DNA of 64,000 nt from Escherichia coli (GCF_030013205.1 NZ_CP122648.1); one strand, 5' to 3'; counted from the first letter of the stretch, positions 19,992 through 47,522 are shown. The notes: a model not told the origin generated them from the letters alone. Numbers and translations are program-made.

Positions 19992-20659
19992 GCTAATGCT
20001 CCTTAATAAAAGCGTAATGGGATGTGAATGGAGATGAAAGCAGTGGATCTCATTGCCATCTGCATTTTCGCATAGCGTATATCGCTGGCTATGACTAATC
20101 AATTAGTGAAAAATTTTTATTTAAACTGTTTTTGTAGATAAAATATTCCGTAACGGCGCGTTTTTTGTACATTGTGGATTTTTACATGCCGATATGGTTT
20201 ATTTTTAATTAAATCAATTAGATATGATTCTGCCTTTAATTACACTAATGAAAGTTTGGGGGTGAGGTAACGCTATAAGCGTAGAGAATTCGGTGTATGT
20301 CGTGACCGGGTCATTTTCAGCATTTTTTATGCCAGAAAATGTACATTGACAGCAGAAAGCACCAGTGAGGGGGGGGTTCCATTTATTCGGTTAAATTGCA
20401 TTTTTATTCATTTTTGTTTTGTCAGGCTTGCGGAATTAGCGAGCAGAGAGCGCCGCTCTGCTCACAAATAACCTAAATTACTCATCAAAATGGCTAATAT
20501 ATAATCTTGAAATTATTCTGAGAGTTTCAGAAAATAACAGCTGAAATAATCTCGCGCAGGACTGTAAATAGATTAAATTTTGTGGAAATATAATAAGTGA
20601 TCGCTTACACTACGCGACGAAATACTTTTTTGTTTTGGCGTTAAAAGGTTTTCTTTATT

Positions 20660-34877: not shown

Positions 34878-37800
34878 TCATTTTCCTAATTCTCCAGCTA
34901 AAAGTTCAGCCTGCTTCAAAACAGTCTCTGTGGCGAGCAATGACATATCAGGCGGATAACCATATTTTTTGAGCAGACGTTTTACCACCACGCGAATTTT
35001 TGCTCTTGCTGCTTCTTTCACTGTCCAGTCAAGACTGACATTGTTGCGGATAGCCTCCGTAAGTACGACTGCCAGTTCTCGTAGTTTTTCCTTTTCCATT
35101 AACTCGCGAGCACTGTCGTTATCTGCAACAGCAGAATAGAAGGCATATTCATAAGCGCTGAGGTTTAACTGGCTGGCAAGGCTGTCAGATTCCTGGATAG
35201 TCTTGGCAAGCTTGATTAGCTCATCAATTACCTCCGCTGCGGTCAGTACCTTGTTCTGGTAGCCATTGATTGCAGAGGTCAGCATATCAATCAGTTTTTT
35301 GCCTTGGGTGATACTTTGATTCGAGCGAACCTTGATCTCGTCAGAAAGCAGTTTTTTAAGCGTTTCCAAAGCAATATTTCTGTGTTGGTAATCCTTCATT
35401 TCCTGAAGGAATTCTTCAGAAAGAACGGAAATATCAGGTTTTTGTATCCCAGCAGCGTCAAAAATATCAACAACTTTATCGGTAACCAGAGCCTGATCGA
35501 TAGTCTGTTTTACCCGAACTTCGAGACTGTCATTGTGTTCTTCTTCTGATCCGTCTGAGTTTTCAGTAAATTTATTCAGTCTGGCTTTTACTGCCTGGAA
35601 GAATGCTACTTCGGGTGCCGCTTCCATTGCTTTATCGTGCGGTGTCGCCAATGCAAATGCCTGCGATAAGGCTGCAACCGCAGCGAGGAAACGCATTTTA
35701 CCTTTACCGTTATCCAGCCCTAAAATATGGTTTTCTGATTCAAGAATAATTGTCAGGCGTTGTGAGGTAGTTGCGGCAAAGTAAGCTTTGTAATCGTATC
35801 CATGCATCATGCCTTCCAGGATTTCCAGCTTTTCCTGCATGAGCGTTACGGCTTCTTCCTGAACCTCAGCAGGATCTCCACGTCCACCTGCATCAGAGTA
35901 AAAGGAGAGGGCTTCTTTTAAATCAGAGGCAATGCCCAGATAGTCAACAACCAGACCGCCTATCTTATCTTTATACACACGGTTCACACGGGCAATTGCC
36001 TGCATAAGGTTGTGGCCTTTCATTGGTTTGTCGATATACAGCGTATGCATGCTGGGAGCGTCGAAGCCGGTTAACCACATATCACGCACTATCACCAGTT
36101 TCAGCTTGTCGTCGTCATCCTTCATACGGTTAGCCAGAACCTGACGTTCTTTTTTTGTGGTGTGGTGTTTGGCAATTTCTGGCCCGTCAGCAGCAGAAGA
36201 GGTCATGACGACTTTTATTATACCGTCATTTAAATCATCGCTGTGCCATTCAGGTTTTAAGGCTATGATTTCTTTATATAGTTCAGCAGCAATACGGCGG
36301 GACATGGTAACAATCATGCCCTTACCATGATCGGCATTGGATTTTAAGCGCTGCTCAAAGTGCAGAACCATATCCGCCGCAATCGCTTTAATACGTTTTG
36401 AACTGCCAATCAAACCTTCGATTCTGGCCCATTTAGAACGTTCTTTTTGCGTGAGCGTCAGTTCGTCCTCGTTAAACTCATCATCAAAGTCTTCAATAAG
36501 CTGACGACCTTCATCACTGATGGCAATTTTGGCAAGACGGCTTTCATAAAAGATACGAACTGTTGCACCATCTTCAACGGCCTGCGAGATATCGTAGATA
36601 TCAACATAGTTACCAAAAACAGCAGGCGTGTTGACGTCCGTTTTTTCTATGGGGGTTCCGGTAAAGCCGAGATAGGTCGCATTAGGTAAGGCATCACGCA
36701 TATATTTGGCAAAGCCGTAAACGGTGCGTTTACCTGTTACGTTGCCTTCGCTGTCTTTCACGTCAACTTCTTTGGCGCTGAAACCGTACTGGGAACGGTG
36801 TGCTTCATCAGCGATAACGACAATATTGGTTCTGTCTGACAACAACTCATAGATATTGCTGCCATCATCAGGCTGGAATTTTTGAATAGTAGTAAACACC
36901 ACACCGCCAGAGGCGACACGCAAATATTCTTTGAGTTCTTCCCGGTTGTTGGCCTGTTTTGGTGTCTGACGAAGTAGCTGGGTCGCGGAAGAGAACGTAC
37001 CGAATAGCTGATCATCTAAGTCGTTACGGTCAGTAATCACAACAACTGTCGGATTATCCAGCGCCAGCACAATTTTCCCGGTATAAAACACCATCGAAAG
37101 CGATTTACCGGAACCCTGAGTATGCCAGACTACGCCCGCTTTGCGATCTCCGGTTTTTTGCGCATTAACAAGATCTTTACTGTTACGTCCCTGCTGGCGC
37201 AGTGCCACTTCGGCAGAGGGGGAGTCCGCATTCACCGCTGAGGCACGAATAGTGGAAAGAACTGCTGCATTGACCGCGTAGTACTGGTGATAAGCCGCCA
37301 TTTTTTAACAGTACGGATACTGATAATCCCTTTGCTGTCTTCATGTTTGCTGGCCTCAAACACGATAAAGTGGCGGATTATATCCAGCAGCGTTACAGGA
37401 TTAAGCAACCCCTGTAATAAAACTTCAAGCTGTGGTTGGGTACTGGTGGCTTGCGTTTTACCGTTAGCAGTTTTCCACGTCATATAACGACTGAAATCGG
37501 CAGAAACCGTCCCCGCTTTGGCTTCCAGCCCGTCAGATATCACATTAAAAGCATTGTAGTTAAACAGACCGGGGATTTGGTTCTGATAGGTTTTAATCTG
37601 ATTATAGGCACCTGTTACCGTTGCATTTTCGTCAGCGGCATTTTTAAGTTCGATAACGACTAATGGCAGGCCATTGATGAATAAAATAAGATCAGGTCGG
37701 CGGGTATGGTTGCCTTCTTTGATGGTGAGCTGATTAATGACCAGAAATGCATTATTAGTGGGATCGTTAAAGTCGATCAGGCTGGCCAGTTCTCCTTGTG

Positions 37801-38116
37801 TATTACCATCCTTGCTGACTTCGATATTGATTCCTTCGGTCAAAAGGCGATGAAAGGTTAGATTGTTTGCCATTAGGTCAGGTGAGCTGATCTGCATCAC
37901 CTGTTTTAGAGCTTCTTCACACTTCTGCTCACTAAGGTGCGGGTTAATTCGTTGCAATGCTGTACGCACTTTATCTTCAAGGATAACCTGCTGATAGCTA
38001 CGTAACGGATTGATTCCACTGGGTTCAATGTCCGGGCCGTAAACATACTCATAGCCCAGCCCTTGCAGGTGCTCAATTGCCATTACTTCAATATCGGATT
38101 CGGTCATCTTTGCCAT
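34878..38116 (-). pseudogene. hsdR: Type I restriction enzyme R subunit HsdR, disrupted by a frameshift in an A6 tract
   Basis: Two overlapping minus-strand ORFs (37232..38116 N-terminal part; 34878..37301 C-terminal part with DEAH box [14 protein letters not shown]); frames switch at the AAAAAA run at 37295-37300; restoring A7 gives continuous …[20 protein letters not shown]…. Confidence 0.8.
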
Positions 38117-38174
38117 GCGTACTGTCCTTATTGCCGCTTAACCAGAGAGCGGGCTGTACACCCGCATAATTATT

Positions 38175-39368
38175 TTATGCTACTGATGCGATTGCTTCTT
38201 CCGCATACTGAACCCGTACTTCGCCGCTCATCAGTTTGGGAAGGAGAGTGTCGCGCAGAGATTCTATGTTTTTAATTTGTGAGTTGTTAATACTTATTTT
38301 TTTCCAGAAGAAATCAATCTGTGTAGTGAATTCTTTCACCATACACTCCGGGGGGAGTTTGAATTCTGGGCGTTGTAATCCGTCAGCCGACAGCTGATTT
38401 ACAGTTGAACCGTTAGTTGCAGCAACAACTTGCTCATGCATATCTTTGGAGCAAAGTAAATAGTACAGAAAAGCATTGGTTAAGTAACTATCGTCATTGA
38501 TGCTGATTTTAAATAAATGATGCGTATATATGGATAATTCGCTTTCTGTTTTTGGAATTATAGCAGGATACCCTATGAGTCGATATTCATGGCCCTGTTC
38601 TGTATTGGCTACAATGATATCCCCAGGCTTTATAATATGCCTTTCTTTAAAATCACCATTGTAGTATTTTATACCTGCACTCTTATAACCACCGCCCTCA
38701 AGTACTGAGTTCAAACTAAAAAGTGGAATGCCGTTATCTGACGTGGTAAGGCCGGCTCCCTTGTAGCTTAATCCCTTAGCTACTGTAATATGACAATCAA
38801 GAGTCGTTATTTCCCAATCCGCATGCGTCTCTTCAATAAACCACTGTCTAAATAGGGTTTCTGCCATGGATTCCAGAGTTTTATTCTGGCGATGAAGCAG
38901 GTCTATTTTGTCTTTAAGAGAGGACAAAATAGAGGCGATGGCTTTTTGTTCAGATTCATCAATTGGTAAGTAAAGAGGAATCAAATTTAGCGATGCTTTA
39001 TTTAATTTTGGTTGAGCAGCACCTGTTAAATAAGGAGATAGATCAAGTTGTGAAAAATATTGGATTATCAATGCCGTTAAATGGGGCTTTTTAGCTTTAA
39101 GGACATGAGCGTGATTATTAACCCAAAATTTTCCAGTAGCTTCAAATGCTATAGGTGTTTTTCTGGACTTTAAGTTTTCTCCATCTTCAGAAATAAGGAT
39201 GTAGCTGCCATCAAAAATATAATTGTCGATATAATCGACAATTCCTGACGCTCCATAATATGGAAAATTTCCTTTCTTATGGGCTCGTTCCATAGCACTC
39301 AAAGGAATTCTTTGTGCGTTGCAAAAATCTGCTAATTCAGTTATACAAAAATTTCTCCACCTACTCAT
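38175..39368 (-). CDS. hsdS: Type I restriction-modification specificity subunit HsdS
   Basis: 397 aa; position between hsdM and hsdR; 4-nt overlap with hsdM stop. Confidence 0.85.
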
Positions 39369-40912
39369 AAAACCACCTTCGCCAGATTATCAACGATGGC
39401 TCTGTTCAGACGCGCCTCTTCTTCCAGTTGCGCTTCAAACTCAGCTTTAAGAGCCGTAAAGCGTTCTTTAAAGTCGAAATCGTCTTCTTCATCAGCAAGA
39501 CCAACATAACGGCCAGGTGTCAGCACATAATCGAGTTTAGCAACTTCAGCAATGTCTACTGACGCACAGAAACCAGCGACGTCTTCGTAGTCGCCACCTT
39601 TGTTACGCCAGTTATGATAGGTATCAGCGATGGTTTTTATATCGTCGTCAGAAAGTACTTTGGTACGACGATTAATTAAATGACCGAGATTACGGGCATC
39701 AATAAACAGAATTTCTTTACTACGATCACGATACTGGTTGCTGTTATGACGGTCACGGCGCATAAACCATAATGCAGCAGGGATCTGAGTATTCAGGAAC
39801 AGCTTTGCCGGTAAGTTGACGATACAGTCAATCACATTGGCATCTTTTACCAGTGCAGCACGAATATCACCTTCACCAGAGCTTTTAGAAGTTAATGCCC
39901 CTTTTGCCAGAACAACACCCGCTTGCCCTTTAGGAGACAAGTGATACAAAAAATGTTGCATCCATGCAAAGTTAGCGTTGCCAGCAGGTGGAATGCCATA
40001 TTGCCAGCGGGCATCACCACGAAGCTGCTCACCAGACCAGTCGGAAACGTTAAACGGTGGGTTAGCTATGATAAAATCAGATTTCAAATCTTTGTGAGCA
40101 TCGTTAAGAAATGAACCTTCATTATTCCAGCGAACGTGTTCAGAATTAATCCCACGAATTGCCAGGTTCATTTTTGCCAGACGCCAAGTGGTCTGGTTGG
40201 ACTCCTGCCCATAGATCGAAATATCGTCAATATTTCCCTGATGTGCTTCTACAAATTTTTCTGACTGAACGAACATACCACCAGAACCACAGCAGGGATC
40301 AAAGACACGGCCTTTATAGGGTTCCAGCATGTTAACCAGCAGGCTTACAATAGATTTTGGCGTATAGAACTGGCCGCCTTGTTTGCCTTCTGCCAGTGCA
40401 AATTCACCTAGGAAGTATTCGAATACGTGACCTAAAACGTCAGCAGAGCGTGCTTTGGCATCTCCTAGTGCAATGTTGCCAATCAGATCTATCAGCTCAC
40501 CCAGAACAGTGGCGTCGAGGTTTTGTCGGGCATAGACTTTCGGCAACACACCTTTTAACTGTGGATTGCCCGCTTCGATAAGCTCCATCGCATCATCAAC
40601 CATCTTACCGATTTCAGGAAGCTTGGCCTTAGAAATCAGATAGTTCCAACGTGCAAGCTCAGGGACAAAGAAAACGTTGTAAGCGGTGTACTCGTCTTTG
40701 TCTTCCGGATCAGCACCTGCGAACTCGCCTTTACCGGCTTTCAGCAACTCATAATGAGATTCAAAAGAATCAGAAATGTACTTAAGGAAAATGAGGCCTA
40801 GTACGACGTGCTTGTACTCGGCTGCATCAATGTTTTTACGCAGTTTGTCTGCCGCTTTCCACAGGATGACCTCTAACGGGTCTGTTTTGATTTCTTTAGG
40901 TTTTCTGGCCAT
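39365..40912 (-). CDS. hsdM: Type I restriction-modification N6-adenine DNA methyltransferase HsdM
   Basis: 515 aa; AdoMet-binding [11 protein letters not shown] and catalytic NPPF motifs. Confidence 0.9.
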
Positions 40913-41039
40913 TAGCGTAACCTTATGAAGGGGGAAGATGGCCCTATTTTGCCTTAAAGTTCCGCTTGTTACGAGCTTATACAGCGATTAATTATTATCT
41001 GGTTTTAGTGTGTTCGTGTAGCTCAGCAAGTGCAATGAC

Positions 41040-41400
41040 TCATGGAGTAAATGCTTTGTAGCGGGATTGTAGATGTCAGGTCATTGCCGTCAATGGAGCC
41101 AGTGTCATTGGCATAATTGCTGCACAGCCGATGCCACGCGCACATTCGCTAGTTCACTGTGGTTCATCGTGTGTACTACACCAGTACGCAGTCCGGGAAG
41201 TAACGGCATGGCAGAATCGTTTGTAAAGACGTTCAAGCGGGATTATGTGTACGTAGATGATCTGCTGGATGCAGTCTAAATGATGGAAACAATGGCAGAA
41301 TAGATAGAGGATTATAATAATCTGCATCCACACAAGGGGTTGAACATGAAATCGCCACGCGAATATCGTGATGCCATATTAGCAGTTAATTAGCCGTGTC
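41040..41400 (+). pseudogene. IS3-family (IS2-like) transposase OrfB C-terminal remnant
   Basis: Short frames translate to …TPVRSPGSNGMAESFVKTFKRDYVYVDDLLDAV and …DYNNLHPHKGLNMKSPREYRDAILAVN, resembling the end of IS2 OrfB; no intact ORF. Confidence 0.6.
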
Positions 41401-42508
41401 CGTTTTAGCAGGGACAACTCCAGTATTCAAAAAAGCTTTCTTAGTGCATATGCATGAGGTGAATAGATGTACAGGCTATGACAAACCATAGTTGTAATTT
41501 TTAATGTTTAAAATTCTCCGTTACAGTAGGACATTCCTTGTACATTAAATTCCATCTAAGGTTGAATTTTTAATTTAATAAGGTCGCAATCTAAAATGAT
41601 GTGTATGGGGTTATTTGTAAGATGATTTTTTATTTTTGATAGTGGTGATTAAGGGAGCGGGTAATGTTTGTCTATTCAAAAATATAGAGATTCAAGGTTG
41701 GTAGCAGTTTGGCTTCTTTTATAACCGAAGGGCAGAAAAGCAAGGGGAACTCGAAGAAGCAAGCGCAGCGGCTTCGCAGAGTTAGCCCTTGCTTCTCTTA
41801 TAATTGGCATTATTCATTCAAGAACAATAGGATCTTCGCTTGTACAAGCGAAGCTATAATAAAAACAATCAATTAATAATTTTAAAAGTATTAAACAAGA
41901 ACCTATTGACATTCATAAAATACAAGTTATTTATAATGTATGCCATAAATAAAAAGTTTTATGTCATATGTATCCTGCACTATGTGCAGTTAATGTACCA
42001 CTTGTCCCATAGATGGGAATATTGGAAAGGTTACTTTGTTTTGAAGTAGCCTTTCGTCCTTCAATATTAACGATTACTTATTGCTATTACCAAGTCCAGT
42101 CGAATCGAAGAACATCTTTTATCTGAAACGACTCCTAATACCCGGTTAAAGCCACAATATCTCTCGCATACGTAGACCAAAGAAAAATTATGATATTAAC
42201 TATGTGATTTTTTTTAGTGTTAAGTTGAATAATTAAATACTGGAGAGTTTTCTGTGCACTACCAATTGCTGGTTCATCTGTTCTGCCGCTGATGTTTCTG
42301 ACGAATCTCCCGGTGACACAGAACTGTCCCTCTCTACCAGCCTTTATTCGACTCAATGTCCGGCTGCTGATACGCAGTTATCCCTTCGTATCAATGACTG
42401 ACACTTAAACGTAATGCTTTGGTTGCTGGCGTATCTGACAGCTTCTTCGGCGTGAAGGTCGTTGTGTAAGTATACTTCTTGGTTTATTTAGGCTATATAA
42501 AACCATGA

Positions 42509-43405
42509 CTATGACTTGCTGTTTTCAGTAAGAGTCTTATCATCCAAAGAATTTATTCTAGAAATTCTTTTTAACTCATTAAGATAATCAACCTCGTTTT
42601 CTAAGAACCAATGAAGAACTTTAGAATTGCCAAGTAATTTATTAATATATGACTGGATTATAACGAATTTCAACATATCTGAACCATACTCGGTTTGAAG
42701 CTTTTTCGTTTCTTCCGAAGTTGTTGCCATTTCTTGTTCCAGACGAAGTATGGTTTTTTTTATGTCCTTTTTATAGGGAGTGTTTTTCCCTTTATTTACT
42801 ATCATCGATGCCGGTGTTGCATCCAAGATGCTCATTGCAAATTTTTTACTATAATTATCAAAATTAATCATTGTACCGACTGCTTCAATTTGGCGAATTG
42901 GCTTCATTTTCCTCAAAACGTCAAATGTAGCCTTAGGTATAGGTTTATCAGAAAGTTTCGCAATTACACTTGGATCTATGCCGTTCATCACATTCGCTTT
43001 ATCTTTTATGGCATCAACAGATATGCCCAAAGCAGCACTAAGTTTTTCAATTGATACTTTTGCCAGAGACTTAATTATCATTCTATGTTCTTCAACTACA
43101 TTTATATGATTCACTTGTTTGTTAGGAGTGAAAGCATCATCTATGCTCGAAAGTATACATGGAGCTTTTTCTATACCTAAGTCTTTTAAAGCCTCAACCC
43201 TTAAATGGCCATCAAGTATCTTAGTGACATCTTTATCTTTGTCATAGAATACTATTATTGGTTCAATAATACCTAAGCTTTCGATAGAGGTAACTATTTG
43301 ATGATATTTATGGCTTCGCTTTACGTTTTCTAATAATTCCTTAGATGGAATTAACTTATTAGTTTCCAGGTAAATAAAATTATCGCCAAAACGTATCTGA
43401 ATCAT
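42509..43405 (-). CDS. ParB/Srx-fold protein (ParB N-terminal-like domain), function unknown
   Basis: 298 aa; ParB-like GxxR-containing segment …IIVFYDKDKDVTKILDGHLRVEALKDLGIEKAPCIL…; start overlaps upstream gene stop by 4 nt. Confidence 0.6.
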   Translation of the reverse strand: MIQIRFGDNFIYLETNKLIPSKELLENVKRSHKYHQIVTSIESLGIIEPIIVFYDKDKDVTKILDGHLRVEALKDLGIEKAPCILSSIDDAFTPNKQVNHINVVEEHRMIIKSLAKVSIEKLSAALGISVDAIKDKANVMNGIDPSVIAKLSDKPIPKATFDVLRKMKPIRQIEAVGTMINFDNYSKKFAMSILDATPASMIVNKGKNTPYKKDIKKTILRLEQEMATTSEETKKLQTEYGSDMLKFVIIQSYINKLLGNSKVLHWFLENEVDYLNELKRISRINSLDDKTLTENSKS

Positions 43406-44298
43406 TTTAATACCTCTTTGTTTACTGGGGTTAATATCTGAGATGGTAGTTCTGAAAGATTCTCTTGTTCAAGTATATGTTGAAAGCTTTTATTTATCAT
43501 TATGATGTTAAAAATCTCATTTACTATTAGTAGGTTGGTTTTTATGAATTTTGAGTTGTTATAAACAGATTTATGTTCAGCGATACTATTTTCATAAAGC
43601 TCAATCAACTCCTCTGCAGTCATCCTTTTTGATGGTTTGTGATAATAAAATCCGGCTGCTTTTGCACCTTTATTCCCAACTGTTCTTTGATTTAGAATGT
43701 GTTTTATCTTTATAATGTCCCGACTTTTTATTAATTTTTTATCATATGCTTCGGTAAGAATATCTTGTGCTTCCTCAGTTTCACATCTTGCAAATTGCAC
43801 TGCGAGATACAGAGGCAAATTACCCCGTTCGACTGCTGAGAGAAGTTTATGCTCTCCCTTATCAAGTAGCATATTAATACTGCTCACCCAGTTCGATGAA
43901 TATCCAGTAATCTCACTTATTTCGGAGTCTGAAAGTCCTCTGATTTTCATGTCTTTAATCACCTGTAATAACTCATTAGAACGTGGTCTTCTCCTTGCAA
44001 TGTTTTCAACTAAACTCATAACGTAAGCATCTTCTTCTGATACATCTCTTATAATTGCTGGAATAATAGTTTCACCTAATGCAACGAGAGCCTCTATTCT
44101 CCCTTGACCACAAATTAAAGCATATTTGAAATCGCCTTCATCAATAGCTCTTACGCTTATTGGCTTGCTTAATCCTCTTTTTTTTATGCTTTCCTTTATT
44201 TCTTCATGCACTACCTTATTTCTTGTTCGTGGGTTAAGAAATTTTATTTTTGCAATCTCAATTTGAATTATTGGGAATTCATTTTTTTCAGGCAGCAT
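43402..44298 (-). CDS. ParB/Srx-fold protein with HTH, function unknown
   Basis: 298 aa; ParB N-terminal-like segment …FLNPRTRNKVVHEEIKESIKKRGLSKPISVRAIDEGDFKYALICGQGRIEALVALGETIIPAIIRD… then HTH-like region; GQGR replaces the canonical GERR box; overlaps recombinase gene by 11 nt. Confidence 0.65.
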   Translation of the reverse strand: MLPEKNEFPIIQIEIAKIKFLNPRTRNKVVHEEIKESIKKRGLSKPISVRAIDEGDFKYALICGQGRIEALVALGETIIPAIIRDVSEEDAYVMSLVENIARRRPRSNELLQVIKDMKIRGLSDSEISEITGYSSNWVSSINMLLDKGEHKLLSAVERGNLPLYLAVQFARCETEEAQDILTEAYDKKLIKSRDIIKIKHILNQRTVGNKGAKAAGFYYHKPSKRMTAEELIELYENSIAEHKSVYNNSKFIKTNLLIVNEIFNIIMINKSFQHILEQENLSELPSQILTPVNKEVLK

Positions 44299-45844
44299 AT
44301 AGTTCCCTCACTTTCATGCGAGTAATAATTTGTAGAAGTTTATCAAGATTATCAAATCTATAGAGATCTAATCGAATGTTGTTTGTTTCCGTCATGCACA
44401 TTTTATTATATTCGTTTTCAATCTTTGGTATGATATAAAAATCAAGAGGTGAAATATTTTGTGAATTCATTCGTATAACAATTGTTATGTCTGCTTTCTG
44501 TGAGTTATCAAACCGGACTTTCCATCTAAGTTTACCTGATTTCATATGTATGCATTTAGTAACAAGGACGGAAATTAAAAACTCATCATTGATGTAAAGC
44601 ATTGGGGCATATTTATACTCGTCTATATGACAGTTACTTTTTAAAATTTCACCCTTAAAATCCTCAATTATCTCTGAGTAAAATGATCTTAGTGCTTCAT
44701 TTATTTTGAGATAGCTGTAATCATGTTCTGGCTTATAACCAATCAAAGTATATGCTCTTAAAAGACCACCAAATCGGGTTCTATAAACAGAAGATGAAGG
44801 GCCTGTATCATCTTCATCAATGATAAAGCCTGATAGTTTTCCATTAGATTCTAATTTTTGTTTTAGTTTTTCTAATAGATCTTCATTAGTCAAATGAATG
44901 GATCGGAGCTGAATTATTTCTTGAGCTTTATTGTATTTTTTCTTTGAAATAATAGGTTTATATGCCTTGTCACATCTAACCCATTCATGTTTGGGGTTTT
45001 TTACAAGCCTACTTTTTAATTTAGATGAGGTTTTGTTATATATGTTGTTTCCAATATATTTTTCATTTGTCAAAATTTGATGTATTTTTGCACGAGTCCA
45101 TAATGTTCCATTTTCTGCAGGTATGTTCTGTTCATTTAATCTCTCAGCAATAATGAATTCTGGGACGTTATTATCTATAAAGAGATCATATATTCTATTT
45201 ACAATTTTTATTTCATTTTTTGGTCCCGGAATTAATATTACCCTATCTGTTTGAATACTCTTTCTTTTGCGGAAACTCAATATTTCTTTAGCTATGCCAT
45301 TTTCGTCTACTAAAAGACGTCTCAGCCCATAACCAGCCATACCGCCTTGATGATAACCAAGCTTTATTAAATTTACTTGCCCTATAAATACCTTTTCAGA
45401 TAGATTCCTGCTGTGATATGCAGCACTAGATCTTTTTATATTCAGTATAACAGAGGACTCTAAAGGGAAATCTTTAGTGGGTATAGGTTCGGAACAATAT
45501 ATAAGATCTACACCATTTCTCTCAAATAGAAAGGAATAATATGCCGCTTCATCACTATTTTGAAAACGACCAAAACGGCTCACATCATAAAATAATACAG
45601 CCTGTATATCTATTTTCTTTTGTTCTACATCGCTAAGTAACTGCTGCAAAGAATGCCTGCCTACGATACTGACTCCGCTCTTACCTGCATCATCGTAGGT
45701 ATAAGCGATTTCCATATTGTTCTTTTCAGCATAATCTTTGATATATTCGGACTGATTATGTAAAGAATATTGCTGATGGTCGGTAGACATCCTCAAGTAC
45801 TGCGCGACCCTAACTCTATGATTTTTGTCATTTTCGCTAGCCAT
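44288..45844 (-). CDS. Large serine recombinase (resolvase/invertase catalytic domain plus recombinase domain)
   Basis: 518 aa; motifs YLRMSTDHQ (catalytic Ser), DDAGKSG, YDVSRFGR, and recombinase-domain WTRAKIHQILTNEKYIGNNIY. Confidence 0.75.
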   Translation of the reverse strand: MASENDKNHRVRVAQYLRMSTDHQQYSLHNQSEYIKDYAEKNNMEIAYTYDDAGKSGVSIVGRHSLQQLLSDVEQKKIDIQAVLFYDVSRFGRFQNSDEAAYYSFLFERNGVDLIYCSEPIPTKDFPLESSVILNIKRSSAAYHSRNLSEKVFIGQVNLIKLGYHQGGMAGYGLRRLLVDENGIAKEILSFRKRKSIQTDRVILIPGPKNEIKIVNRIYDLFIDNNVPEFIIAERLNEQNIPAENGTLWTRAKIHQILTNEKYIGNNIYNKTSSKLKSRLVKNPKHEWVRCDKAYKPIISKKKYNKAQEIIQLRSIHLTNEDLLEKLKQKLESNGKLSGFIIDEDDTGPSSSVYRTRFGGLLRAYTLIGYKPEHDYSYLKINEALRSFYSEIIEDFKGEILKSNCHIDEYKYAPMLYINDEFLISVLVTKCIHMKSGKLRWKVRFDNSQKADITIVIRMNSQNISPLDFYIIPKIENEYNKMCMTETNNIRLDLYRFDNLDKLLQIITRMKVRELYAA

Positions 45845-46126
45845 GCACGAAACCTCATGGATGATTCAATACAATGTAGTGGATAAAATTGATCAAATTT
45901 CAACCGAATTCAACTGTTTTATCATTGATTAGAGCGAATTTGGTAGATCTTCGAGGTGTATGATAATCGAGAAGAGATGTGAATTATTTAGCTGATATGA
46001 CCGACAGCTTTCGTTATGTGGACTCAATGTCCCCATTTGTAAATGGCTATGCTTAGTCCACATAGGTTAATGGTGTGATTATTAATTCTTTAACTAAATC
46101 AAGATAGTTAATCCATCATGGGAGAG

Positions 46127-47356
46127 TTATGCGGCCATAACTTTGCATTTTTGAGACGAAACATAGTCACTCCACCATTGCATGAGAACCACCCGTTCAG
46201 TGAGATACTCTGCACGATTGTAGGCTGCAATTATTTCATCTTTCTTCGAGTGGGCAAGGGCGGCTTCTAAGACATCAGTCCTAAACTTGCCAGACTCCTC
46301 AGCAGCCGTTCTAGCAATGGATCGCATACCGTGAGCTACAAGCTCACCTCCGAAACCCATACGGATTATGGCCGCATTAGCTGTTTGTTCATGCATGTGA
46401 TTGAGTGGAGCTTTGATACTGGGGAACACCCACTCTCTATGCCCGCTGATGACTTTCATTAAATCCAAAACTCGCAAAGCTTCTTTGCTCAGTGGAACTT
46501 TGTGAGGCTTCTTCATTTTCATAAACTCCGCCGGGATGTTCCACATGCCAGTTTCAATATCAATATCTGACCATCTTGTGCGAACAGCTTCACCTGGGCG
46601 AACCCATGTGAGAAGTTGCCACTCAATCAGTAGCCTTGTTTCCAAACGGATAGAAGCATTGTTTAGAGCAACCAAGAAGCGAGGGAGTTCGGAAGGGGGT
46701 AATGCTGGCATATTCTGTTTTTTTGGCTTGCTGAACCGTTGCCCCAGGTTGTCTGCCGGGTTGAATTCTATGAGTTCTTCTGTTGCTGCATAGCGGAAAA
46801 TTTCATTCAGGCGGGATATGATGCGGCGAAGTGTTTCAAGGACACCTCGTTTTTCTATGGGTTCTAAATGCTGTTTAAGCATTTTAGGGCGAATCTCCTT
46901 AATTGGGGTATCACCCAATGTGGAAAAGATATTTCTCTCTAGGCTTCGCCAGATGTCGTTAGCATGATCTTGGGAGATGCCTGACGTTTTGACTTTCTCA
47001 TCAAGCCACTTCTTGGCTACTGCTTGAAATGTATGTTCCGTGGCATCTTTCAGTGCATTGGCTTTTTGGTTGTTATGAACTTGGGGGTCTATACCATTTG
47101 TAAGCAACGACAAGTATTCATCACGTAAAGCTCGTGCCTTCGCAAGTGTAAGGTGAGGATAGGTTCCTAAGCTCACCTTAGTTCGCTTTTTGGTCACAGG
47201 CACTGCATATCTGAAATACCAATTTTTCTTCCCTCCCTTCGCCAGGGGAGCGATTCGCAACAGCAAACCATCGCCGTCAAAAAGGTTAACCTCTTTTTCG
47301 GCAGGTTTGGTGCTTTTGATTTCAGTGTCAGTGAGCTTCTTAGCGATTTTGGCCAT
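46127..47356 (-). CDS. int: P4-family tyrosine integrase next to ssrA
   Basis: About 409 aa from MAKIAKKLTDTEIKSTKPAEKEVNLFDGDGLLLRIAP…; C-terminal catalytic region with R…HGMRSIARTA…Y; ORF track extends 27 codons upstream. Confidence 0.9.
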   Translation of the reverse strand: MAKIAKKLTDTEIKSTKPAEKEVNLFDGDGLLLRIAPLAKGGKKNWYFRYAVPVTKKRTKVSLGTYPHLTLAKARALRDEYLSLLTNGIDPQVHNNQKANALKDATEHTFQAVAKKWLDEKVKTSGISQDHANDIWRSLERNIFSTLGDTPIKEIRPKMLKQHLEPIEKRGVLETLRRIISRLNEIFRYAATEELIEFNPADNLGQRFSKPKKQNMPALPPSELPRFLVALNNASIRLETRLLIEWQLLTWVRPGEAVRTRWSDIDIETGMWNIPAEFMKMKKPHKVPLSKEALRVLDLMKVISGHREWVFPSIKAPLNHMHEQTANAAIIRMGFGGELVAHGMRSIARTAAEESGKFRTDVLEAALAHSKKDEIIAAYNRAEYLTERVVLMQWWSDYVSSQKCKVMAA

Positions 47357-47522
47357 GTTTGGGACCCTCGATTTTAGGACCCATCTTCGTGGGTCCCATT
47401 CAGGGTGCCATAACTCGTAGTTCTCAGCAATTCTCACTAGACTACAATAGACGTAAAAAAGCCCGCAGAGCTTGTGCTGTGCGGGCTTAGTAGACTTTAC
47501 TGAACTTCAGTACATCAATATT

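Follow-up and report, generated by a model that had tools for sequence, protein, structure and literature searches.

A one-base contraction of a poly-A run splits hsdR of an Escherichia coli type I restriction-modification system: probable inherited deletion or nanopore consensus error

The classical restriction-minus, modification-plus (r- m+) hsdR mutants of E. coli include the hsdR17 and hsdR2 alleles of EcoKI carried by laboratory strains. The locus described here shows both marks of such a null allele in its sequence: the reading frame of hsdR is disrupted, and hsdM and hsdS are intact, so that an inactivated R subunit accompanies untouched modification and specificity genes, as in the EcoKI mutants. 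It differs from these in belonging to another type I system, located on an ssrA-linked island and encoding an HsdR with a HindI-like C-terminal domain; moreover, its lesion would be a natural homopolymer deletion, for which the r- m+ phenotype is predicted. Since M2S1 is an independent methyltransferase (PMC7383803), methylation without restriction would be expected from this genotype.

Frameshift-prone mononucleotide runs inside hsd genes are also known from phase-variable type I systems. The survey of Atack et al. 2020 required a run of at least nine bases, treated an absence of length variation among strains as counting against switching, and noted that switching R alone brings no obvious benefit (PMC7383803). 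The present locus shares with these genes a frameshift-prone run within an hsd gene, but the run has seven bases rather than nine or more, lies in hsdR and not in hsdS or hsdM, and shows essentially no length variation between strains, so that neither of the two sequence marks of a phase-variable hsd gene was found.

The third point of comparison is technical. Residual errors of assemblies built from nanopore R9.4.1 reads alone are mostly homopolymer indels, typically deletions (PMC9262707, PMC8812927), and our case is similar to them as a single-base loss in a run of seven, in a long-read-only assembly without short-read polishing, resulting in a split gene call. Unlike such errors, it is not private to one assembly: it is shared with the sister isolate ETEC4077 and absent from clone-mates processed with the same pipeline, and the rest of the window is clean.

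The hsdMSR operon and its frame break

The window (the whole stretch of DNA analysed, 64,000 nt) was 100% identical over 40,080 bases to NZ_CP122643.1 (E. coli ETEC4079; pig faeces, Belgium), with window position w corresponding to position w + 1,183,725 of that record. It carries an hsdM-hsdS-hsdR operon, with hsdR as the last gene, on an island adjoining ssrA. The features are as follows.

34878..38116, minus strand: hsdR, type I restriction subunit R, disrupted (RefSeq, TIGR00348, Pfam)
37232..38116, minus strand: upstream open reading frame (ORF), 294 aa; HsdR residues 1-272 plus 22 out-of-frame residues, holding the PD-(D/E)xK nuclease domain
34878..37301, minus strand: downstream ORF, 807 aa; HsdR residues 273-1079, comprising the motor, helical and C-terminal domains
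37301..37306, minus strand: A6 run (A7 in relatives), site of the one-base deletion; T6 on the plus strand
37232..37235, minus strand: GTGA overlap, in which the TGA of the 294-aa ORF overlaps an in-frame GTG
36150..36156, minus strand: second A7 run in hsdR, intact here; T7 on the plus strand
38175..39368, minus strand: hsdS, specificity subunit, intact, 397 aa (WP_001356249.1; Pfam Methylase_S)
39365..40912, minus strand: hsdM, methyltransferase subunit, intact, 515 aa (WP_000101606.1; Pfam HsdM_N, N6_Mtase)

The components of a type I system were all recognized: an HsdR combining a PD-(D/E)xK nuclease with an SF2 ATPase, an adjacent hsdM, and an hsdS with two target recognition domains (TRDs). 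The hsdM and hsdS genes are adjacent and co-oriented with a 4-nt overlap, their RefSeq names agree with the Pfam assignment, and they encode the same proteins as in genomes with an intact hsdR, which bears out the preliminary description in calling them intact. The NCBIfam model TIGR00497 scored 181 bits, below its equivalog cut-off of 243, and indicates family-level membership only; no HsdS family was found in NCBIfam at E 1e-10 or better, and the identity of HsdS is taken from Pfam and the RefSeq name. For the repaired HsdR, Pfam placed HSDR_N at residues 4-209, SWI2_SNF2 at 278-549, T1R_D3-like at 653-726 and the HindI-like T1RH-like_C at 744-1074, together with ResIII, and TIGR00348 (hsdR), whose cut-off is 285, scored 591 bits. 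The protein displays the motifs PDLILFINGLPLVVIELK, GSGKS and DEAH, with the PD-(D/E)xK motif kept in the upstream fragment and GSGKS and DEAH located in the downstream ORF. Its sole solved relatives are the HsdR subunits of EcoR124I/EcoR124II (type IC), matched at E=3e-29 over part of the protein only.

The island, which spans approximately 32300-47400 next to ssrA, comprises a tyrosine integrase, a serine recombinase, two ParB-like genes, hsdMSR and two IS1 copies. Its ankyrin-repeat gene is shortened by IS1 (612 nt here vs 870 nt in WCHEC020031), and its alpha-amylase-like gene is truncated by IS1.

Around the A6 run, the minus strand reads CGTACTGTTAAAAAATGGCGGCTTATCACCAG. The 294-aa and 807-aa ORFs overlap by 70 nt, at 37232-37301, and the final A of the run is the first base of the ATG of the 807-aa ORF, which is the native Met273 codon. 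The run covers codons K271-K272-M273, with Val-Lys-Lys-Met written GTT AAA AAA ATG in the uninterrupted gene. The break at K272/M273 falls in the nuclease-motor linker, directly upstream of the YHQY Q motif. Adding one A resulted in a 1079-aa HsdR residue-for-residue identical to WP_001096907.1 (P0121), an intact protein present on at least 1000 public contigs. Both ORFs matched a single HsdR family protein end to end, and HsdR homologues of other species keep a continuous frame across the break site; the split hsdR is therefore not a chance pattern of ORFs. A break elsewhere within the 70-nt overlap was excluded, as clone-mate alignments differ at the A run only.

These data confirm the frame break at the A run given in the preliminary description, whose span of 37232-37301 is exactly the ORF overlap. 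Its placement of the A6 run at 37295-37300 was six bases off (the run occupies 37301-37306), and its prediction that one extra A would give a continuous protein held for the frame, with a length of 1079 aa instead of 1078. The feature itself was already known: RefSeq annotates hsdR in NZ_CP122643.1 (1218603-1221841) as a pseudogene with the note "frameshifted", and it is not of a new kind.

A 785-aa product (residues 295-1079, without the YHQY Q motif) could be made from the GTG at the GTGA overlap, and gene calls of 785 aa exist in Logan contigs that carry this A6 allele. No Shine-Dalgarno-like sequence is visible before the internal ATG of the 807-aa ORF.

An A/C single-nucleotide polymorphism (SNP) lies at 38148, in the 58-nt hsdS-hsdR spacer and 32 nt 5' of the hsdR start; the base is C in ETEC4070 and 4071, and A in the window, ETEC4067 and ETEC4069.

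Tract length across genomes and the question of switching

The locus was present in 316 complete E. coli genomes, whose best matches span 3402 bases as compared to 3401 in the query. An 80-nt query with A6 had an exact match in one genome only, ETEC4079, while the corresponding 81-nt query with A7 matched 243 genomes exactly. Among the other 40 of approximately 283 genomes, ETEC4079 aligned with a gap, and all others sampled were ungapped with 3-4 substitutions. Two divergent alleles that were aligned retained A7 amid synonymous changes. ETEC4079 was the only one of the ~283 complete genomes with hsdR to have a tract of other than seven bases.

At the protein level, the products expected from A5 and A9 tracts were absent from about 15 billion proteins. 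The A8 product does exist; in each contig encoding it, however, between two and four further poly-A/T runs have a +1 insertion as well, and substitutions are nearly lacking (zero in four contigs, four in another). We rejected these A8 alleles as evidence of switching, since +1 insertions at poly-A/T runs are an error signature. Five records (L027-L031: GCA_030398435.1, GCA_025420475.1, ERR13669486, ERR13669350, ERR2744290) show +1 changes at several poly-A/T runs of the island, namely A8 to A9, A7 to A8 and T6 to T7; such a bias towards insertions is systematic and leaves deposited draft genomes with false frameshifts.

A6 alleles were also found among Logan assemblies. The same 294-aa product (P0122) is encoded in nine of them, each from an independent run. 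Seven of the nine contigs carry other homopolymer deletions or CCTGG (Dcm-site) errors, written CC-CG for CCTGG, indicating that the tract at 37301-37306 is miscalled in noisy long-read data. SRR17277027, by contrast with the noisy contigs, has A6 within a 13.3-kb stretch free of any other indel, in which seven further long runs are called correctly. Over 9.4 kb it matches WCHEC020031, an unrelated strain, at every position outside the tract, and it differs from ETEC4079 by 5 SNPs. As judged from its contig, whose sequencing platform was deduced from the error profile alone, SRR17277027 looks like an independent real A6 allele, which suggests that real A6 alleles probably occur in nature.

A6 alleles also occur at the second A7 run of hsdR (36150-36156) in other public assemblies, with a 664-aa product (P0129). 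The contigs L022, L023 and L025 are clean at this allele and others are noisy; the complete chromosome CP165476.1 has A6 at the second run together with further indels in the locus. Because the second run also shows sporadic A6 alleles, the focal tract is not special.

These comparisons bear on the proposal of the preliminary description that the A run is a slipped-strand ON/OFF switch, making hsdR a contingency locus of a phase-variable type I system. The break does sit in a homopolymer, a +1 slip would reverse it in principle, A6 alleles occur in at least two lineages, and phase-variable hsd genes are known in other bacteria (PMC7383803). Against this, the tract of 7 nt (A6 here) is below the threshold of 9 for mononucleotide phase variation in hsd genes. 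Tract-length variation, which the preliminary description had suggested looking for in a population, turned out to be near absent between strains: 243 genomes have exactly A7, the two divergent alleles have A7, the other sampled variant records are ungapped, A8 appears only in error-laden contigs, and A5 and A9 are absent. The tract moreover encodes Lys-Lys-Met with the usual AAA codon of E. coli, and the second A7 run behaves alike. With a wild-type tract of no more than A7 and ~282 of 283 complete genomes keeping seven bases, the proposal lacks support, and we consider switching at this tract highly improbable.

Restriction could also be reduced without being lost if the deletion were real and leaky, with -1 ribosomal slippage of tRNA-Lys, or transcriptional slippage, restoring some full-length HsdR. 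A-rich Lys codons are slippery sites in E. coli, for example the A-AAA-AAG of dnaX, and a -1 shift within AAAAAA reaches the correct frame. On inspection of the sequence, though, no stimulatory element (upstream Shine-Dalgarno-like sequence or downstream hairpin) was identified, and six A's are short for transcriptional slippage. We hold such recoding to be highly improbable.

Inherited deletion versus consensus error

The frameshift is observed in the sequence of ETEC4079; whether the base is truly absent from the DNA has to be judged from the assembly and its relatives. The genome was produced with R9.4.1 nanopore chemistry, SQK-RBK004 rapid barcoding, Bonito 0.4.0, Trycycler and medaka 1.5.0, with no Illumina reads (Vereecke et al. 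2023, PMC10151945), at a coverage of about 195x and a stated accuracy of Q50 (PMC10151945).

The relatives sequenced in the same study allow a direct comparison. Against the clone-mate ETEC4069 (49.5 kb), the tract is the sole indel, and the same holds against ETEC4067, 4070 and 4071 (16 kb each). Homopolymers of 7-8 nt occur at 21 other places in the window, and none of those within window 1-49544 differs in ETEC4069. Window 39001-64000 has a gap-free match in seven of eight same-study clone-mates, the exception being ETEC1748, where a ParB-like gene has T7 for T8 and an intergenic run has G10 for G8, both as singletons. As the other runs agree with the clone-mates, the assembly is not riddled with homopolymer errors; for this pipeline, the discrepancy per tract is estimated at about 1-2%. 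Direct inspection showed A7 or an intact hsdR in ETEC4067, 4069, 4070, 4071, 1748 and 6333 (same study, same pipeline), and A7 is implied for ETEC6334 and 1701, since only one record matches the A6 query.

The exact 294-aa and 807-aa products are each found in two GenBank accessions. This match at the protein level points to the A6 allele in the sister isolate ETEC4077, which is likewise nanopore-only. The chromosomes measure 5,190,196 bp in ETEC_4077 (Table S1, PMC10151945) and 5,181,067 bp in ETEC4079. ETEC 4077, 4078F and 4079 have a common plasmid with 12 resistance genes (PMC10151945), and a chromosomal ant(3'')-Ia is restricted to 4077 and 4079 (supplement, PMC10151945). ETEC4071 was apparently sequenced in one batch with 4077 and 4079, as judged from read counts in round multiples of 4000. 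An artefact specific to that batch was also considered and is weakened by the A7 of ETEC4071.

The main alternative to a deletion, a homopolymer sequencing error, had been raised in the preliminary description, and the nanopore-only R9.4.1 origin of the assembly, without short-read polishing, makes it a live one: the genome would have A7 and an intact hsdR, and the consensus would be one base short in both ETEC4079 and ETEC4077. An accuracy of Q50 corresponds to ~50 residual errors per genome, or ~0.6 per 64 kb, so that a single error in the window is about what would be expected; given this figure and the homopolymer type of the residual errors, an artefact is favored on priors alone. Independent noisy long-read assemblies repeat the A7-to-A6 call beside other homopolymer deletions and Dcm-site errors, the sibling assembly ETEC1748 has singleton homopolymer indels of its own, and the solitary position of ETEC4079 among the complete genomes suits an error as well. 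The distribution of the allele argues the other way. An artefact requires the same miscall in a pair of mutually closest relatives that were sequenced separately, while at least six same-pipeline clone-mates with identical flanks were called A7, at a tract class with a discrepancy of only about 1-2%. Consensus errors at about 200x are mostly context-determined, so an identical context should yield an identical call; an A6 that follows phylogeny in identical context fits an inherited mutation and not a random or context-driven consensus error. We regard the artefact as a serious but less probable explanation.

To weigh these points, we took the prior odds of a real deletion to be about 1:5, from ~10 real lineage-specific indels vs ~50 assembly errors per genome (rough figures). 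The sharing with the sister isolate and the 0/8 affected clone-mates give a likelihood ratio of roughly 10-20, if a real mutation is taken to be shared with a probability of ~0.7 and an error to strike this tract a second time with a probability of ~0.02-0.07. The calculation results in about 0.6-0.8 for a real deletion, which we trimmed to 0.62 because a sub-clone-specific methyltransferase could bias basecalling at the tract, an effect that could rescue the artefact. We thus put the probability of a real inherited deletion, with a putative restriction-minus, methylation-plus genotype, at about 0.62.

The case is ordinary if the deletion is real and trivial if it is an artefact. More generally, a homopolymer-split gene in a nanopore-only assembly is not readable as biology without orthogonal data, and comparison with clone-mates and a sister isolate is a cheap means of weighing mutation against artefact.

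Predicted consequences of a real deletion and minor observations

If the deletion is real, ordinary replication slippage in the ancestor shared by the two sister isolates from pigs, ETEC4079 and ETEC4077, would have shortened A7 to A6 in hsdR. HsdR would be severed between its N-terminal nuclease and its ATP-dependent motor domains and, because the break separates the two, we infer that no functional R subunit would be formed. The untouched HsdM and HsdS should still assemble the M2S1 methyltransferase. As regards this type I system, the sub-clone would lack restriction and retain modification, with hsdR as a plain loss-of-function pseudogene and not a switch. Methylation without restriction, which the preliminary description had put forward as a possibility, is the best remaining reading of the sequence, on condition that the deletion is real (roughly 60-65%).

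The outcome would be one pig ETEC/STEC sub-clone that has lost restriction by this type I system and kept methylation. Its barrier to incoming plasmids and phages could be slightly lower, a matter of local epidemiological interest only. The A6 sub-clone (ETEC4077, 4079) exceeds its clone-mates in genome size and carries an additional 217-kb plasmid encoding 12 resistance genes; speculatively, the plasmid gain and the larger genome fit a lowered barrier to foreign DNA, and as a single lineage they prove nothing. Clean A6 alleles occur at either A7 run of hsdR in unrelated lineages. One could imagine from this that the A7 runs of this HsdR, which is widespread in enterobacteria, are weak points mutating at a low rate, by which restriction is lost time and again in different lineages and foreign DNA is taken up more easily; we hold this broader idea to be improbable.

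Several differences were recorded elsewhere in the window. The T8 run at 44178-44185, in a ParB-like gene of the island, is T7 in ETEC1748, where RefSeq calls the gene frameshifted; it is a second singleton homopolymer frameshift among these nanopore-only genomes. The G8 run at 20369-20376, intergenic between the divergent stpA and alaE, is G7 in K_EC180, G8 here and in ETEC4069, and G10 in ETEC1748, and could be either a truly hypermutable promoter-region poly-G or sequencing noise. Position 62237, in dgcN, is G in the window and A in ETEC1748, which according to RefSeq creates an internal stop in this diguanylate cyclase gene. Finally, five SNPs fall within about 420 bp (2209-2626) at an IS200C copy, relative to the clone-mates ETEC4069 and K_EC180, and the following ~47 kb of window 1-49544 contain no further SNP relative to ETEC4069. 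Such clustering points to gene conversion among IS200 copies, or else to an artefact of polishing with reads that belong to other copies.
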